Assembly (NCBI GenBank): GCA_000442015.1
Contig: KE561022.1
Location: 1 to 64,000 of the forward strand
DNA: 64,000 nucleotides
Reading direction: 5' to 3'
DNA from: Rozella allomycis CSF55
Taxonomy: Eukaryota
Part shown: piece after piece, positions 28,003 through 60,687 of the stretch
Layout of the letters: each line of letters opens with the position of its first letter
Position numbering within the stretch: the first letter of the stretch is position 1
Made by a program: the position numbers and the translations under genes
The notes under the pieces: generated by a model
Told to the model about the DNA's origin: nothing
Seen by the model: only the letters and a program-made list of their open reading frames with translations
Databases searched by the model: none

Positions 28003-28711
28003 TCAATTATCTTTCACTCTCACGTTCTTTNNNNNNNNNNNNNNNNNNNNNNNNNNNNNNNNNNNNNNNNNNNNNNNNNNNNNNNNNAACACTGGAATTG
28101 TATTGCTTGTATTTTCGTCCGCATCGGCACTTAAAACTTTTTCAGTCACTTTAAAGGAATACGCCGAATCATCAAATTCTTCATCATCTACATCTTTGAT
28201 TTTTGGCACCATTGTATCATTTTCAGGTTCTTGTGTATTGTCAGGATTCGCTACATTTGTATCGACAACCACATCTTCATTTATCGGCAGGACCAATTCA
28301 TGTTCTGTTGGAATTGTCTGCCAATCATTTTTGTCAATTTCAGGCATTCCTGGTATGTGTCCAATTACTAAAGGCGTCTTTTCTTTAACAGGAACAAGCT
28401 TCTTTTTTGTCTTTTTTGTTTTTGATATTCTTTCCTCCTGATCATCTAAATCCTTCCCCTCAATAATGGCCTTTGCTATATTCTGTTGCTTAATTTCCTC
28501 TTTGGTCTTTTTTCTGACGTCAGAAAGAAACTTTTCCACATTCTCTTTATGCTTCCTTCCAGAATTATGTAGTTGAATAGTCTATTCAACATAACGTACA
28601 ATCGTTACCATTTTGCTATCGCTTATATAGCATTTACAGTATTGACAGTAATGTTTTGCTTGCGATACCCAGTACTCTGACCTATTTTTCTATTTCTAGT
28701 TGGTTTTACAT
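28003..28711 (-). CDS. WBP4/FBP21-like U1-type zinc-finger splicing factor
   Basis: MSEYWVSQAKHYCQYC...HNSGRKHKENVEKFL. The start codon is split AT|G by a 28-nt intron. N gap at 28031-28087. Confidence 0.8.
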
Positions 28712-46152: not shown

Positions 46153-47052
46153 ATGTGGATTTTTTTGCATATTCTGGTGTTACTAGTAGCAAGCAGTTTT
46201 CAGGTGTATATACCTCCGCATGTCGAATACCAGATAAAATCAGTGGAGAGTTTTGAGACGATCCAGAGAAATCTACTAGACGAGATCCTGTCATACATGG
46301 ATGGCAACCTTGTTTTACAATCTGTATACTCTGATTCCCCCTTTACCAACACGTACAAGGCATCTTTGAAGAAACTTTTCCGTTGCTTGCGCGGATCTCC
46401 ATATGATTATGTGTCAAGCGACCGGCGATACCACTTTATCGTGCCTGTTGAAAAATTCAAGCAAGATTGTCTCGAATCTGAATTTGCGACTGAATTTGAA
46501 TTGAATTCTTTATCACAAGTTTTAGATTTTGTCAAGATGTCTGTTGAAATCAAATCGTCTGACCCGAGTGAATTTTTTGACACTGAGATTTTCAAGGTGT
46601 TGGGGAAGCGCTTGAAATTGTATCTTTCGTTTAAAACTGATGTGTTTAAATTAAATGAGCTAAATTTTGAAAGTGTTCAAGTGGACATCAACTCTTCGAG
46701 GAAAATGCTACTAATAACGCCACTTTGCTTACTTGCGAAACATTCATCGACAAGCTTAAAGTACATTGAGTTAGGATCCAAGAAGCCGGAATCGTATCCA
46801 CAATTAATGAAAGCGAAAAAATATATTATCAAAGGCGCGGATCGATATTTGCATTACTTGTGTATATTCAGTGTGAGAGACTTTTTGATCCAGTCGTTTC
46901 CCGACTTGAAGTCATTCTCTTTTTCTAATGCAAGTTTAATGAGCCACGTTGACAACTTGCAGCTATTTTTGAATCGGCATCGGAGAAGTTTAAGGGCACT
47001 TGATTTGAGCTATTCTGATTTTGGCGATGATGGGTTAATAAAAATCAGCAGT
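46153..47052 (+). CDS. Secreted LRR protein, 3' truncated at N 47053
   Basis: Signal peptide MWIFLHILVLLVASS and RNI-like LRR LRALDLSYSDFGDDG. Intronless. Confidence 0.65.
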
Positions 47053-47053
47053 N

Positions 47054-48725
47054 AGCCCTTTTCGGAGGCCTCTCGAATACAATAATTGTCAAGTTCACAT
47101 GGATCAACTTTTGGATCTCGAAGCAAAATTTTCACAATATCTGCGTATCCATTAAGGGAAGCCGACAGAATGTTACACGCACTAGGATCAACTCTAGGAT
47201 CGTCGAGTAAAATTTTGACGACCTCTGAATAACCACGACATGAAGCAGCTCGAATGCAATAATTTTTTTCAACAGTTGGATCTACTCTAGGATCTTGTAA
47301 TAAAATTTTGACAATTTCTGCATAACCTCCATCGGAAGCCATTTTAATGCAATAATTTTTTTTAGTAGTTGGATCCACTCTAGAATCTTGTTGTAAAATT
47401 TTGACAACTTCTGCATGACCGTACTCAGACGCAATTCGAATACAAGCATTTTTTCTCACAGTTGGATCCACTCTAGAATCTTGTAGTAAAATCTTGACAA
47501 CTTCTGCATAGCCTCGTTCGGAAGCCATTCGAATACAATTATTACCAAGCGCACTCGGATCTACTCTGGAATCTTGAAGTAATAGCTCCACAACATCTGT
47601 ATGACCTTTCTTTGAAGCCGCTCGAATGGGATAGTTGTTAAATATACATGGATCTACTCTAGAATTCTTAAGCAAAAGTTTGACCAATTCTGTATGACCG
47701 TTCTCGCAGGCCCTTCGAATAGCACGATTTTGTTTCACACTTGGATCAACTCTAGAATCTTTCAGTAAAATTTTGACGACTTCTACATAGGAATTTTCGA
47801 TAGAATATCGGATAGCATAATCTGAAGCACGGCGAATGGAGAAATTGTCGTATGCACTTGGATCAACTCTAGGATCTTGAAGTAAAAGTTTGACAACATC
47901 TACATTGCCATTTTCGGAGGCCTCTCGAATACAATAATTGCCAAATATACTTGGATCAACTCTAGGATCTTGAAGTAAAAGTTTCACAACATCTGCGTAA
48001 CCAAAGGACGAAGCATTTTTAATAGAATAATTTAAATTTGCACTTGGATCAACTCTAGGATCTTGAAGCAAAAATTTCACAACATCTGCATGGCCATGAT
48101 AGGAAGCAGAACAGATAGCGATATTTCCCCACACACTAAGATCAACTTTACGATCTTCTATTAGTATCTTAAGAACACATGTATCACCATTTTCAGAAGC
48201 CATCCTGATGGCCGAATCAATAGCACTACTATCAATCACTGACGTTGTTAAAAGATACTCAAGCATCTCTTTGTTCCTATTTCTGGATAATTTATTCCCA
48301 TAGTTTTTGTCTTCTGACGGATCGGATTGAATACCTTCCTTAACACTGCTGAAACTACTTGCCCCATCCTGGATTTCATAAGTAAGATTATAACGGCATA
48401 CAAACTTGAATGCATAGTTTACACATTTTTGAGAAGCGTCTCTTTGTTTCATGAAATTCAGAAAGCAAGCGAACTCTTCCCGGCTACCCCTGTTTTGGGG
48501 GATATAAGCACACAAATCTATGTTCAGCAATTTATCGCAAACATTCTTGATTAGAAATTGAATTACGTACGGACAATTCCACGAAAGGCTTATTTCAGCA
48601 GCTTGATGAAGAATTAAGTCGACACAAAGTGAACGGAATGATCGTGATGTTCGAGACATTTGTTTCACATCGTCTACACCTAACTTCGACAAAATAACAA
48701 GCCAAACTTCGTGAGGAACATCCAT
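47054..48725 (-). CDS. F-box + ankyrin-repeat protein, 3' truncated at N 47053
   Basis: F-box MDVPHEVWLVILSKLGVDDVKQMSRTSRSFRSLC, then about 11 repeats of 34 aa (D(P/S)RVDP...IR.AS..G..EVVK.LL). Confidence 0.88.
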
Positions 48726-48889
48726 TTTATAAAGTGGCTGAGACAACAATCATCGATTGATCGACTTTATTAGATGCACTGTCATCAACTTTTTCAACTC
48801 ATCAATTAATAGGCGAATCTCCAATTATACCATATCGCTGACATACAAACGGGGAGGCCGATCTAAAATTGGGAAAATTCTCACTTCAG

Positions 48890-50430
48890 ATGAGGCGATT
48901 CTTTTCATCAATTTCGAGTAACTACCCACATTACAGACCTAAAAACAAAATTTATAAATATTCTGAGCTTATTTCAAAATATCAAAATATTGCTCCAGGG
49001 ACAAAGGCTACTGATGATAATGTTACCGTTGTTGGTCGAATATCAAGTATTCGTGAAGTCTCCAAAAAGTTGACATTTATTGACCTTATCAGAGATGGCC
49101 AATCATTGCAAATAGTCTCAACGGCCAACGTTTGCCAAACTCATGAATTGGTGGGGAAATTCAACAGGGGCGATATTGTCCAAGCAGAGGGTTATGTAGG
49201 AAAGACAAAGACTGGTGAACTGAGTCTGTTTATAAAAGAAACTCAACGTCTTTCACTTTGTACTGAAAATCTGACGACCGCACATTTTGGAATAAAAGAT
49301 CCGGTAATCAATTCGGTACTTTTACAAAGGAAATCAGAAATAGGAAAAGATATGTGGACATGATTGTTTCCCCCAATACATTTCGCATATTTCAAAATAG
49401 ATTCAAAATGATTAAGATTATTAGAGATCATTTGAATTCAATGGACTTTCTGGAGGTAGAAACCCCAATAATATCATCTGAATTGGGTGGTGCCAATGCT
49501 AACCCTTTTGTTACTTATTTATCTGACCTGAATCAGGAGGCGTATTTAAGAGTAGCACCAGAACTATTCTTAAAAATGCTTGTCATTGGCGGCTTTGATA
49601 GAATATACGAGATTGGAAAACAATTTAGAAATGAAGACATAGGTACATGGCACCATCCTGAGTTTACTTCCTGTGAACTGTACATGACATATGCAACTGT
49701 AGATGATTTAATTCATCTCACTGAAGATTTGATTTACAAGATCGCTGAGGTGATTGTAGTTGAAAAAGATAGGGATTTTTACAAACCCCCATTCAAGAAA
49801 ATATCAATTGTACCCTTTCTCGAACAGAACATTGGATCCAATATTCCATTGCAATCAGGTATGTTATTTTAAGTTAAGTAATTTGATAATTTTCTGTTGT
49901 TTGCGGAAACACTTTACGAAAAAAATGGATGGGAGAAACCTCAAGTTAAAACTGCATCTAGATACTTTGATAATTTGATTAAGAGATTCATAGAACCGTT
50001 ATGTGAAAAGCCCACATTCCTAATTGGACACCCGCTATTTATGTCTCCTTTGGCAAAATGCATGCATGATAACGTAAGTTTTTCACATTGATAGCATTAG
50101 CAATATATAGCTGATAGATTTGAGCTATTTATTAAAGGAGTGGAAGTAGTTAATGCTTACCAAGAATTGAATGACCCTGAGGAGCAGCGAGCCAGATTTA
50201 AACATCAAATGATGGATAAAATGTTAGGTGATGTCGAGAGTTGCAGTGTCAATGAAAATTTTGTTGACGCGTTGCAATATGGATTGCCTCCGACGGCCGG
50301 ATGGGGAATGGGTATTGACAGAATGGCAATGTTAATGTCGGGTTTAAATTCTATTAAAGAAGTTTTAGCATTTCCTTTAATGAAAAGTGCGAAAAATAAA
50401 GATCTAAAAGTAAATAAACAAAGAGATTAG
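48890..50430 (+). CDS. MSK1: Mitochondrial lysyl-tRNA synthetase
   Basis: Presequence MRRFFSS, FLEVETP, YLRVAPELFLK, FRNE, HHPEFT, YGLPPTAGWGMGIDR. Confidence 0.92.
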
Positions 50431-50468
50431 CGGTACGGGCAAATTTTTACAATTTTCGCTCTCATCAA

Positions 50469-50541
50469 GGCTTTGTTGTCTAATGGTATGATTCTCGCTT
50501 GGGGGTGTGAGAGGTCCCGAGTTCGATTCTCGGCGGAGCCC
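50469..50541 (+). tRNA. tRNA-Pro-like gene with an expanded 8-nt anticodon loop (UUGGGGGU)
   Basis: Acceptor GGCTTTG/CGGAGCC-C, Pro-type D arm GTCTAATGGTATGAT, stem CTCGC/GTGAG, perfect T arm CCGAG-TTCGATT-CTCGG, followed by TTTT. Confidence 0.85.
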
Positions 50542-50576
50542 TTTTAAACAGTTTTTTTTGAAAGCATGAAATAACT

Positions 50577-53258
50577 TTATTGCAGGTACAATTCGTAGCT
50601 GTTGCCAGATTTGATGTAAGCATTGTAGATATCAATTTTTGTTTTCGAAGCTATATTTTTTCCGTTTATATCTTTTGGCGAAACATAGTTTTCATAAGTT
50701 AGTTTATCTTTTTCTGGAATCTGAATGTTTCCAACATGCGATTTCAGATAACGCTGGAAATATGGATATTCACTATGAGATTTTTCATCGTCGACGGGAT
50801 GTTGGGCAAATTGAGTTGTCTTATTAACATACCTTTCATAGTCAGATATATCATTTTTATGAACATGAGGATCAGACAGGATATTGGCTATTTTGGATAT
50901 AGATGTAGATCTGATATGTGCGGTTCGAACTGATCTTTTTCTAGAATTATCTTCTGATTTTTTTAAGAGTTCTATTCTGTGACTGTACTTTCCTCCTGTT
51001 AACAAAACTTGCTCTATGCCTGAACCCACATTTACTTCAACTCGTCCTGACTGTGATCTTGAAACAAATGGGCTTTCATTCATTTGGCTATCCTTGCCCA
51101 TTTGCTCTGTACTTAAAATTTTCATGGCGTACATTGAACCAAGAGATTCCAATCTCGGTTGATAGTTCAATTTCCAAAGGTACGATGTTAACAGCGCGCA
51201 CTCATCGAATGACGCTATTATAATACTCTTGGAATCTTACTTGATATTTGAACACTATTTTGAAATTTTTCAGTGAACCAATAAATATAGGAAGGATACT
51301 TTTCATATCTATTTCTGAATCGTAAATGCAATGGCGCATCTGTAGGAAGATCTGAAATATTAAAATTTAAGGCAAAAGGTTTGAATTTTCCAAGGAAAAT
51401 GTTAATAGCTTCTTGTTTCTCTTTGTCATTAAAGGAATTTGAATAGAAACGTTTAATTGAGTTAATAAGATCTCTTGAATGTGATGACCATCCAGATGAT
51501 TTGCGATAAGTTTCAATCGTATTGACTAAGTTGCTACCGCCATATTGTAGAGCTAATGTATCTCCATGGTCATGATACATTTCAGCCAATATCTTAATGG
51601 CATCGCAATCCAAGTCTAGAAAATTATCAGAGAAACATCCAAGACATTTAAGCTTTTATATAAGAATATAAAAAAATACTTGAAGAGTAAGTGCCTGCCT
51701 TCCAATCATGAATTGAGCCGCATTGGTGCGATCTAGGCAATCGATGCAATTAGTTCTGATAATTCCTTTCTGGACACTACGCATGCATTGAATAGAAATT
51801 CATTTACTTTATTTCTACTGACCCGCTTATCCTTGAGTGATAAATTTGACATTTTCGGATTAGCATTTCCGATATCGATTCCAACTCCTTGATGACATTT
51901 ATTGATGGGCTTTTAAAATTTAAGATGAAAGATACTTTTTAGCTGCTCGTGACATATCCCACGATAAATAATCGATTTTACAACACAAGAATTGATTTAA
52001 GTATGAAATTGCATTTTGATATTCTTTTGAAACAATACTTTCTCTGGGAATCTTTTCCGTTTGCTATTTTTACAAAATATATTCTTTACTTTGACCAAAT
52101 CAAATATCATTAATGGTCCACCATGACGTTCAAAAATCCTATCAAAATGTTTTGCAGTTTGAACATAGAATGGGTCATTTAAAACCACTATTAACGTATA
52201 TGAAAATAAAATACACTGGATAGGTGGTTTTGGTGCCATATTTTGAACTTCTTGAGCCCAATAAAGAGGAATCGATCCTCGCATTTGAACAAAACTTGTA
52301 ACTTGCCCAGAAAAAAACTTTGTTGTTGACGCATCATGAACAATTTGCTCTGTTTCCACCTCATTTGCAGCGTAGCCCTTGACTCCTTACTATCTATAAA
52401 GGTTACATTGTCATTAACACCTCGTTTAAAAAATCTGGCTCCAGCAAATTCAGCAGATCTTCTTGCAATTAATGTAAAATATATAGGCTTCCCATAGACT
52501 GAGATTTCATTTTTCTTTAAAATAATATATTTACTTGCTTGACCGACAAATCCATAAATTATTGGGACAATCCAATTTGTTTCATACGGCTTCATGTCGA
52601 ATGGGAAGAACTGGTGGTTCCAAATAAACATTTTATTGAAGCTTAAAGGTTTAGATGAATCTTTGGTTATTTGCTGAACAGTTTTGGACAAGTTGTAGGT
52701 GAAAGAAAAGTAAAAATTCTTGGTCAAGTCAATCCCCTTGAACAATTCTAAATATCTATAATAATATTATATCATTCTTGCCTCTTTTCTTCGTTTGAAA
52801 TGTCGCTTGCAGTAACTGACATAATTTCAACACTATCAATGTGATGAATACTGTGTATTCCAAGCTGAGCGACCACACTACTTTTACTAACTAGAATCAT
52901 GAACCAATTTTCCAGTATTTTGTAAAATCCTTTGACTCGATTAGTCTTTTATTACCAATACAAGCGACGAATGTGCCAAGATATTGACATCCGCCATTGA
53001 TCATGTTCCCTTCATTTACCATGTTTAAAACATCGTCAACTTGACTGCTAGAATACTCTGTAGGGTCTTCATGCAAAGCAAAATCATTATGTTCTCTTTC
53101 TATTTTCAATATTCTCCACAAATCCCCAAAAATGGTTTTAGCAGTTAGATAGTATTTCTAACAAAACAGTCATTCATTTTTACTGCTTTAGTTTCGTACA
53201 AATTAAGCAAGTTAAAATTGTTAAGATGTTTTCCATTAATGAATTGAGTTTCAAACAT
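50577..53258 (-). CDS. FIG4: SAC-domain PI(3,5)P2 phosphatase Fig4
   Basis: [46 protein letters not shown]. Confidence 0.93.
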
Positions 53259-53348: not shown

Positions 53349-53422
53349 GCTCCCATAGCTCAGTTGGTTAGAGCGTCGTGCTAATAACGCGAAGGCCGCA
53401 GGTTCGACCCCTGCTGGGAGCA
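53349..53422 (+). tRNA. tRNA-Ile(AAU)
   Basis: GCTCCCA/TGGGAGC-A, anticodon arm TCGTG-CTAATAA-CGCGA, followed by TTTTT. Confidence 0.95.
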
Positions 53423-53533
53423 TTTTTGGTCACTTTTCTTATCAACTTTCAATTTCATCACAAAAATTCCATAAATAGAAGAAATCAAACTAGTAACCAG
53501 TATTAAGGCAAGGGTCCTGCATCAATATTTTCA

Positions 53534-58065: not shown

Positions 58066-60687
58066 TTATTCAAGGGGATTAGTATTGATCTTTTTAAATG
58101 TAAAAGGAAGAAACTTGTAGCCATTGCCCCCATAAAATTTAGAGTTGAATTCAACCCAATGAAGACGCATGGCATGAAGAAAGGCAGATAGACCTTCCAT
58201 GCCGAGTAGAATGCCGACTGTTAAAGCAAACCAAAAGTAGAAACCAATGTAGAGCATGAAGAAGCTGCCTCTGCAATTGTCAATAATCATTGTCCAAAGA
58301 ACATCAGATAATTCTATGAGAGAAGAGTGAATAGATTACGCGCATGAGCTAGAGAAAGAGCCCAGAGACGAAGATAAGACGCTGTGTTTGAAATGCAGCC
58401 GAGAGCGAATTCAATTGTGTGGATTGTTTGATGAACAAAAATTTCACCAAATTCAAAGTGCTTAATTTAGTGAGATTTAATTGAATTACTTGATGTGCAT
58501 TATGAGAGGTTGAATGGTCGTTGGATGGGTTATTTGACTCTGGATCAGCGTTTAAAGGAATAGACTCTGAATTTAGAGGAACAACTTCTTCTCTGGTGGG
58601 AGAATGAGTTTGAACAGAGTTGTATCCAATTGAAGTTTTTTTCAAATGCTGATGGCGAAGATAAAAGGGTTTAACAAACCAAAGGATTGGAATGCAAAGA
58701 ACAGCAACAACTACAAGAATCATTTGAATTTGTTTCTGTCCACTGTATAAAGGATATTTAATGTCACTCCCAAAATCTAAAAACATTAAAATTAGCATGT
58801 TTAATAAAGAAGGTGGATTTGACATTGAAGATTGATTAATCCATTTGAAAATTATCATTACAGCCAAATACCCAAAAATTGAAGTCATAAACACAACTTG
58901 TGGGATAAATTCACATAAAATAGACAAATAATCTTTTCTATGCAAATGATTCAACAAACTCAAAAATATTCCAAACAACATCTATTAAATCAATTTCAAT
59001 TCTATTACATGTAACACTCCAATTATTATGGCTTGCTTCATTTTATATGAATTCAAAAACAATAAAATATTCTCAGAATCATGCCACGATGGATCTATTC
59101 CAAATGGATACACTTTCCCATTAAACGTTGAACTCCCATCACGTGCAAAGTCAAATCCAGATTCAAAAAAATAAATTGCTTTAGAGAAAATATCATTGTA
59201 AATCAATCCAATATAAAGCGAAAATAATCCCATAAGAAATATCATGTATCTCCCTCCAACAACAGTCTGCGTCATTTCCCCTTTTATTTTACTCAATTCT
59301 TTCTCTTTCAATATCAAATAAATTCCAATCAATGTCATCAACATTCCATGTCCAAAATCTCCAAACATCACACTAAACAGAAATGGAAACGTTATCACCG
59401 TAAACAGCCCTGGATTCACCTCTCTATACGTCGCCATCCCATACGAATCTATAATCTCCTGAAACGCAACTGTATATTTATTCGTTCTATGAAAAGTTGG
59501 AGGCTCTAAATTAGTCTTCATCTCATGCATCACTGACGCCATCATAGTTCCACTCTTCTCACTAGCTGTCCTCAACGCTATAGTCACCTCCCCAAGCTTA
59601 TTCTTTGGTGCCCATCCCTCAGCTATCAAACATCTTCTACTATCATCATAATTAAACATATTCATCGTATGATAAATAGCCTTTTCTCTCCTAACTACAA
59701 ACGTCCATTCTCCAATCATCTCAATCACCTGGCTCAACACACTCCTCCTCGTTTGATTCGTATTGTATATCACACTATTCAAATCTTCCAATCTAGCGGC
59801 TACTTCAAGCGAATGCTCCCGCCTCTTCTCCGCAGAATCATCAATAGAATACAACGTTGCACCCAACGACTCGCATATCTTTTTTATCTTATTCAATATC
59901 TCTTTCCCATGCGCAAATATCAAAAACACATTCTTCTCAATCACATCCCCTGTATTCGGTTCCTTCATCACCTCATCAATCTCACTATAATTCAAATACA
60001 AATTCCCTCTCAACGCCCTCCACAACACCCGCTCAAATGTAATCATCTTCTTCCTATCAATCACCCCAGCTACAAACCCCAGTCCACTACTCTTCGTCAG
60101 TCTCTCAGGCTTCCCCTCCTCAATATCCTGGTGCAGCAACGGCCTCTCATGGTCATCTGAATGCACCCCCATCATCCTATCCTCCTGCCGCGCTGTCACC
60201 TCGGTAAAAAAATTTGCTGTATCCCGCAACACATGCTTCAGCTCTGTCATCTCCAAATGCCGCTTCTCCAAATTCTCCTGCGATCTATTCATCTCCTCCA
60301 ACCGACTCGCCAAATCATTCACACGCCGCTCAAGCTCATCCAACTCTTTCACAGAACGCGGGAAATACCGCGTATCAGGCTCCACCAACACCATATCCAT
60401 CTTGCGCGCTTGGCTCGCTATAAACCCTACTACCAGAAACTATCACCCTTACGAAGATTCCTCTCAATCTCATCAAATCTTCTAATCTCATTCACAAACG
60501 TTCGCTGGAAAGGATTCACATTCGCGTTCATCTAGTTACTCTGTTTACACTATATTACATCCCGGAAATGCACCAAATCTAACTCGCCCAGTTCTGACAC
60601 AGTTCCTTGCGCTACCTCAAACGGTATATACAGCTGGATAAGCGACATTACCTCGGAACGAAGCAACGAACTTGGAACAACACTCAT
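58066..60687 (-). CDS. VPH1: V-ATPase V0 subunit a
   Basis: [59 protein letters not shown]. Confidence 0.96.

Follow-up and report, generated by a model that had tools for sequence, protein, structure and literature searches.

The gene at positions 50469 to 50541 of the window, by which we mean the whole stretch of 64,000 nucleotides analysed here, is, to judge from its sequence, a tRNA-Pro of the eukaryotic type in which the G run of the anticodon loop is longer by exactly one G. The gene and its 8-nt loop are present in contigs of two read sets, and in structure the gene is an exact analogue of the classical proline frameshift suppressors. We give roughly even chances to the reading that the gene is a real, possibly transcribed and redundant tRNA-Pro copy, which is degenerating or near-neutral rather than a selected recoding device.

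According to this proposal, a nuclear tRNA-Pro paralogue, which can probably still be transcribed by Pol III, would have gained a G in the anticodon loop, resulting in a run of five Gs and a loop of 8 nt. The copy would then have gathered several smaller departures from the canonical tRNA-Pro body, with selection on it presumably lacking. If the tRNA is expressed and charged with proline, it would, by analogy to SufB2, engage in triplet pairing with CCC (and CCU) in the A-site. The product would mostly hold the frame, slip by +1 at a low rate at CCC-N sites in the course of translocation and face competition from the normal proline tRNAs.

The gene and its genomic setting

ARAGORN identified four tRNA genes in the window, three of which are ordinary and lie in similarly gene-dense surroundings. 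For the gene at 50469-50541, the output was tRNA-???, with the four bases gggg given as the anticodon at position 33, and the loop thus has 8 nt. The Rfam tRNA model (RF00005) matches the gene over model positions 1-71 with 42.0 bits, the gathering score of the family being 29 (E-values of 9.8e-08 in a scan of 401 nt and of 1.6e-05 for the whole window). In the cmscan alignment, four residues stand opposite three model positions, which sets the loop apart from the 7-nt anticodon loop of the model. It has to be mentioned that the default gathering scan of positions 1-64000 misses this 42-bit tRNA because of the Rfam speed filters, and that the same model recovers the gene with laxer filters. 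The gene body is that of a tRNA-Pro, with a eukaryote-type body sequence and with G35 and G36. The coordinates of the gene, of its parts and of the introns that are discussed below are summarised in Table 1. The A-box region is a putative one, and the two T runs, which are of the kind expected for Pol III, are taken as putative terminators from general knowledge of this polymerase.

Table 1. Coordinates of the tRNA-Pro-like gene, its parts and selected introns in the window
Feature	Positions	Strand	Basis or remark
tRNA-Pro-like gene, 73 nt	50469-50541	+	ARAGORN; Rfam RF00005, 42 bits; alignment with metagenomic tRNA-Pro(GGG) genes
Parts of the 73-nt gene			7-bp acceptor stem (two G-T pairs), D arm, 5-bp anticodon stem, 8-nt loop, 5-nt variable region, T arm, discriminator C
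Anticodon loop TTGGGGGT, 8 nt	50499-50506	+	Sequence, ARAGORN, Rfam alignment, contigs of X1 and X2 without gaps
G run inside the anticodon loop	50501-50505	+	ARAGORN: anticodon GGGG, then G and T
Anticodon stem, 5' strand CTCGC	50494-50498	+	Pairs with 50507-50511; one G-T pair
Anticodon stem, 3' strand GTGAG	50507-50511	+	Arm as in metagenome locus L005 except for the extra G
A-box region, tRNA positions 8-19	50476-50486	+	T9 and A15; G in aligned tRNA-Pro genes
B-box/T-arm region, including the TTCGATT T loop	50520-50530	+	Sequence, Rfam
Two T runs, TTTT (50542-50545) and T8 (50552-50559)	50542-50559	+	Putative Pol III terminators
Intron, 26 nt	49304-49329		Lysyl-tRNA synthetase gene
Intron, 27 nt	50074-50100		Lysyl-tRNA synthetase gene
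Intron, 27 nt	58982-59008	-	V-ATPase a-subunit gene; multiple of three, in-frame stops inside
Intron, 87 nt, GTATGT..AG	49859-49945		Lysyl-tRNA synthetase gene; shows that intron sizes vary

A preliminary description of this DNA had already placed an 8-nt loop between the strands CTCGC and GTGAG, likened the extra G to that of SufA6 and SufB2 and listed U9, an A15-C48 mismatch, an intact acceptor stem, an intact T arm/B-box and a TTTT terminator. The structural part of this account was borne out: the loop by the sequence, ARAGORN and the Rfam alignment, and the single G added to a tRNA-Pro body by ARAGORN, Rfam and the alignment with related genes. T9, A15 and C48 are all present, the stems pair and the TTTT run is in place.

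[quoted passage not shown] In eukaryotes, inosine-34 tRNAs took over from G34 tRNAs for eight amino acids, proline among them (PMC8266599, in part). G34 is thus not the usual eukaryotic solution for proline, which favours a degenerating copy. The same can be said of the number of steps involved, as at least two changes are needed to arrive at the loop of the window gene from an AGG, CGG or TGG gene.

The tRNA is located in a gap of 146 nt between two convergent genes. Its start is 38 nt past the TAG of the same-strand gene for a mitochondrial-type lysyl-tRNA synthetase, and 35 nt separate its end from the stop of the opposite-strand gene for a Sac-domain phosphatase. Pfam revealed ordinary nuclear genes around 50469-50541, and the window is characterised by a GC content of 33-38%, the standard code and very short GT..AG introns. 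The top named relatives of a 471-aa V-ATPase fragment share 49-56% identity with it and belong only to chytrid, blastocladian, mucoromycete and other fungi; four non-fungal named matches reach 40-46%, and none of the matches is near-identical. We therefore regard the DNA as that of an early-diverging, fungus-like eukaryote to which no annotated organism is closely related.

Two further observations were made in the window. A sub-threshold match to Plastid-ycf2 (40.7 vs 65.7 bits) at 53349-53423, antisense to the tRNA-Ile gene, is probably merely tRNA-like. Moreover, an open frame of 579 aa with many ankyrin repeats and a recurring motif occupies 47010-48749 on the minus strand. Its end overlaps the opposite-strand end of a 310-aa frame (46153-47085) that has no Pfam match, and a single N is present at 47053.

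Signs of wear, relatives and paralogues

The gene shows signs of a pseudogene (T9, A15/C48, three G-T pairs, the lowest score) alongside pairing stems and a score above the gathering score. All four stems pair, and there is no damage to G18/G19, T33, the TTCGATT T loop, the B-box region or the T-run terminators, which speaks against degeneration. The TTTT run directly abuts the gene, and the T8 run starts about 10 nt downstream of it. However, the gene departs from its relatives at positions that are constant among them. T9 stands where all three aligned tRNA-Pro(GGG) genes have a G, and A15 where these three genes as well as a CGG paralogue have a G. Since C48 is kept, the 15-48 pair is lost. 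Furthermore, one G-T pair is found in the anticodon stem and two adjacent ones in the acceptor stem. The score of 42.0 bits is the lowest of the four tRNA genes in the window, the others being tRNA-Leu-TAG (56.1), tRNA-Glu-CTC (61.2) and tRNA-Ile-AAT (69.7). These deviations argue for a degenerating copy, and a decaying tRNA, which the preliminary description had named as an alternative, fits them at least as well as its functional reading does. Folding turned out to be uninformative because the cloverleaf lies 4.4 kcal/mol above the minimum free energy structure (-20.2 vs -24.6 kcal/mol), and the gap for the ordinary tRNA-Glu is 5.3 kcal/mol (-24.0 vs -29.3 kcal/mol).

Relatives were searched in a metagenome collection by using a pattern that covers the D and anticodon arms and allows a G-rich loop of 7 or 8 nt. 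Seven loci matched the pattern, each with TTGGGGT as its 7-nt loop. A loop of 8 nt occurred in none of these seven loci, in no prokaryotic genome searched with the same pattern and in no viral contig searched with the exact arm; as the patterns are narrow, these blanks are weak evidence, which leans towards a degenerating copy. ARAGORN calls a tRNA-Pro(GGG) in the loci L002 and L007 and no tRNA in L001, L003, L004 and L006. L005 is partial and situated at a contig end, and its anticodon arm is that of the window gene minus one G. When the window gene was aligned with L002, L007 and L005, the mean column identity was 87% and the only gap, of 1 nt, fell within the G run. The D arm and the anticodon arm are alike in L002, L007, the partial L005 and the window gene. 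However, the metagenomic genes differ by their 7-nt loop, G9, G15 and fully Watson-Crick acceptor stems. Being eukaryote-type tRNA-Pro genes with a GGG anticodon and a 7-nt loop, L002, L005 and L007 are unusual themselves because eukaryotes normally read CCY with AGG (inosine). In L003, L004 and L006, the tRNA-Pro-like D/anticodon/T region is identical and follows a long T run, and an acceptor stem is not recognisable. These three loci may represent a tRNA-derived element.

Paralogues were read in the contigs of run X2 among the records listed (8 of 13). One record, a contig of 875 nt with a depth of 284.2 (vs 277.7 for the contig with the 8-nt-loop gene), has the stretch 50511-50543 (33 nt, including the T arm) in common with the window, with one mismatch. 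The tRNA-Pro(CGG) gene on this contig has an ordinary 7-nt loop and G15, nearly matches the window gene in the T arm and the 3' acceptor strand and is present at single-copy depth. Thus, at least one canonical tRNA-Pro paralogue is present in the X2 read set. Moreover, the depth of X2 rises to 868.8 and 809.4 over the tRNA vs 277.7 on the flanks, the extra depth spanning 50438-50571. Therefore, there must be additional tRNA-Pro-like contigs, which may belong to this organism, and the window gene is probably a redundant one. The canonical paralogue and the extra depth both support the view that the window gene is a degenerating copy.

However, some observations do not sit easily with degeneration. 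The pair 29-41 in the anticodon stem is C-G in the window gene vs T-A in the CGG paralogue, and in view of this two-sided compensatory change, the gene descends from a separately maintained isoacceptor rather than from a fresh dead duplicate. In addition, the gap between the convergent genes is tight, and junk would hardly persist there. The loop has exactly the SufB2 form, with five Gs and no other damage, and the window gene is possibly the only CCY-specific decoder of the genome.

Enlarged anticodon loops and decoding

SufB2 from Salmonella is the ProL tRNA (GGG) with an inserted G37a, which uses triplet pairing in the A-site and shifts during translocation (PMC7803779, in part). In cells, +1 frameshifting by SufB2 at CCC-C amounts to 8.2% with m1G37 and to 20.8% without this modification (PMC7803779, in part). 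[quoted passage not shown] By its sequence, the loop TTGGGGGT has the form of the SufB2/SufA6/SUF suppressor class as defined in the available part of this source (PMC7803779). The window gene shares with SufB2 the identity as a proline tRNA, the extra loop G, the run of five Gs, the 8-nt loop and the complementarity to CCC-C (PMC7803779, in part). However, SufB2 is a bacterial, laboratory-selected suppressor whose activity was measured, whereas the window gene is a wild allele of a eukaryotic nuclear gene, has a eukaryote-type body and is known from its sequence. SufA6 and the SUF alleles of yeast likewise bring about +1 suppression at proline codons via an altered tRNA-Pro anticodon loop, and the yeast alleles illustrate that the principle works in a fungus; unlike the window gene, they are mutants selected in the laboratory. 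The suppressor allele of yeast SUF2 was reportedly found by Cummins et al. in 1982 to have an insertion in the anticodon loop. SUF2 of baker's yeast encodes a tRNA-Pro(AGG) (PMC5389508).

A natural and functional tRNA with an 8-nt loop is the yeast mitochondrial tRNA-Thr1 (UAG), which reads CUN triplets (PMC3113583 and PMC7609411, both in part). Unlike the window gene, tRNA-Thr1 belongs to mitochondria, originated from tRNA-His, goes along with a codon reassignment and a dedicated synthetase and is devoid of a G run. Putative quadruplet anticodons predicted by gene finders in chloroplast genes are said to have been described by Mohanta et al. in 2023. These resemble the present case in that a tRNA finder called an 8-nt loop computationally, but they differ from it in being chloroplast genes. 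According to the available part of the 2016 review by Atkins et al. (PMC5009743), the loops of nearly all natural tRNAs are standard and the few natural exceptions were not known to mediate frameshifting. A literature search, with most subscription journals outside its scope, did not turn up any natural tRNA-Pro with an 8-nt loop that had been reported from a eukaryotic nuclear genome. Most of the known frameshift-suppressor tRNAs with an extra base in the anticodon loop are mutants from the laboratory or engineered tools. If the window gene were expressed, as a SufB2-like nuclear tRNA of a wild eukaryote, this would mean that cells tolerate or use such a tRNA, and a natural scaffold for quadruplet decoding in eukaryotes would be at hand. 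If it is a decaying copy, which we judge to be more likely, the case would be a minor annotation point and the gene should be labelled as tRNA-Pro-like with an 8-nt loop and not as a normal isoacceptor.

The proline codons were counted in 68 non-overlapping ORF segments with 13,047 codons, which serve as a crude exon proxy. CCT occurs 158 times, CCC 60 times, CCA 199 times and CCG 57 times. As CCT and CCC make up 218 of the 474 proline codons in these ORF proxies, a CCY decoder is needed. The window gene could be a working proline tRNA that reads CCC and CCU as ordinary triplets despite its 8-nt loop, possibly as the main CCY decoder, and we regard this as possible though unlikely. The intact cloverleaf, B-box region and terminators as well as the compact intergenic gap are in line with such a function. 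Furthermore, metagenomes contain eukaryote-type tRNA-Pro(GGG) genes that share this arm and have 7 nt in the loop, and the yeast mitochondrial tRNA-Thr is functional with its 8-nt loop (PMC3113583 and PMC7609411, both in part). However, SufB2 shifts at CCC-C with a frequency of 8.2% even with m1G37 (PMC7803779, in part), and as CCC-C is not avoided, shifting of this kind would come at a cost here. C follows CCC in 8 of 60 cases (13%) vs 14.9% C at that position overall, and CCC-C is thus neither avoided nor enriched, which is weak evidence because the ORF proxies are small and crude. T9, A15/C48 and the low Rfam score point to a relaxed constraint, and the extra depth in X2 suggests that there are other tRNA-Pro-like copies. 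We consider it improbable that a wild eukaryotic nuclear tRNA-Pro with a five-G, 8-nt loop of the SufB2 type is expressed and charged here and either acts as a CCY-specific decoder or causes a standing low +1 shift at CCC-C/U that is needed by a gene or a mobile element elsewhere.

The position of the gene, on the same strand as and 38 nt past the stop of the lysyl-tRNA synthetase gene within the 146-nt convergent gap, might also hint at a non-translational role. The gene could serve as a chromatin or transcription boundary between the convergent genes, as a 3'-end processing signal for the upstream mRNA or as a source of tRNA fragments. The odd decoding parts, next to an intact B-box region and intact terminators, would fit such a role. 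However, nothing that was observed points in this direction and three ordinary tRNA genes of the window have similarly gene-dense surroundings, which makes a role of this kind quite improbable.

Sites at which a +1 shift would be required were searched on both strands of the window by scanning for CCC-N at the end of a long open frame that could be continued in the +1 frame. The scan yielded five crude 0-to-+1 candidates, and for all five there are GT..AG alternatives of the length 3n+1. Three of the five are antisense to Pfam-supported genes, namely 2445 (+) over the PAP2 ORF and 60065 and 60077 (+) over the V-ATPase ORF. None of the CCC-N sites within the 64-kb window is convincing on either strand, in agreement with the preliminary description, which had noted no coding sequence in the window needing a +1 shift. 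The in-frame stops at 49870-49881 of the lysyl-tRNA synthetase gene were ruled out as a recoding site because the 87-nt intron at 49859-49945 removes them in frame.

The lack of a +1 target in the window and of CCC-C avoidance supports the reading of the window gene as a degenerating copy. A selected +1 or quadruplet decoder, which reads CCC-C/U as proline and restores the frame of genes or mobile elements elsewhere, appears very improbable to us. The loop is that of the classical suppressor class, i.e., a tRNA-Pro with an extra G in the G run (PMC7803779, in part), the gene looks transcribable and the loop is real in two read sets. However, a target in the 64 kb is missing, the 8-nt loop is present in no relative found with the narrow patterns, CCC-C occurs at background rate in ordinary coding sequence and tertiary positions of the tRNA deviate. 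Moreover, the few natural tRNAs with non-standard loops are not known to mediate frameshifting in the available part of the 2016 review (PMC5009743). Of the natural +1 or quadruplet tRNA that had been proposed at the outset, the structure, an 8-nt loop with an extra G, is therefore left standing; the function found no backing in an RNA run containing the stretch, in a window target or in a conserved relative with the same loop, the suggested search for this loop having been negative in the seven metagenome matches and, with the narrow patterns used, in viral and prokaryotic sequences.

The fifth G in the read sets

The window contains 13 single Ns and one run of 57 Ns (12719, 16092, 16582, 19656, 24816, 28031-28087, 30788, 39055, 41504, 42208, 47053, 56930, 57042 and 58051). 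The assembly is therefore unpolished and the fifth G had to be checked. For this purpose, Logan contigs of four runs (X1, X2, X7 and X8) were compared with 49500-51500. In X1, a single contig with a depth of 17.3 spans 49500-51500 without differences. In X2, the contig with a depth of 277.7 covers 49796-51153 with no other letters and no gaps. An insertion or deletion was reported in none of the four runs, the coverage of X7 and X8 excluding the tRNA. X1 and X2 have different study and organism labels, and one or both may be the source of the assembly; at least one of them is regarded as independent. Among the 15 runs examined, no RNA run was listed for this stretch, which speaks neither for nor against expression of the gene. 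The gap-free agreement of the X1 and X2 contigs makes an assembly error unlikely. The fifth G had been singled out for confirmation in reads; contigs from two public runs carry the 8-nt loop, and a 7-nt loop was not encountered among them. An error of assembly or sequencing in the homopolymer, with a 7-nt-loop tRNA-Pro(GGG) as the true gene, is hardly credible as the origin of the fifth G, because in spite of the unpolished assembly the separately assembled contigs of two differently labelled runs match without gaps at depths of 17.3 and 277.7.

No variant was reported within the tRNA in X2, with the caveat that contigs drop rare variants. On either side of the gene, X2 contains two versions of the stretches 49713-49825 and 51124-51261, with depths of about 222-259 and 116-120 and with 6 and 11 differing positions. 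Thus, two haplotypes or strains are present at these stretches.
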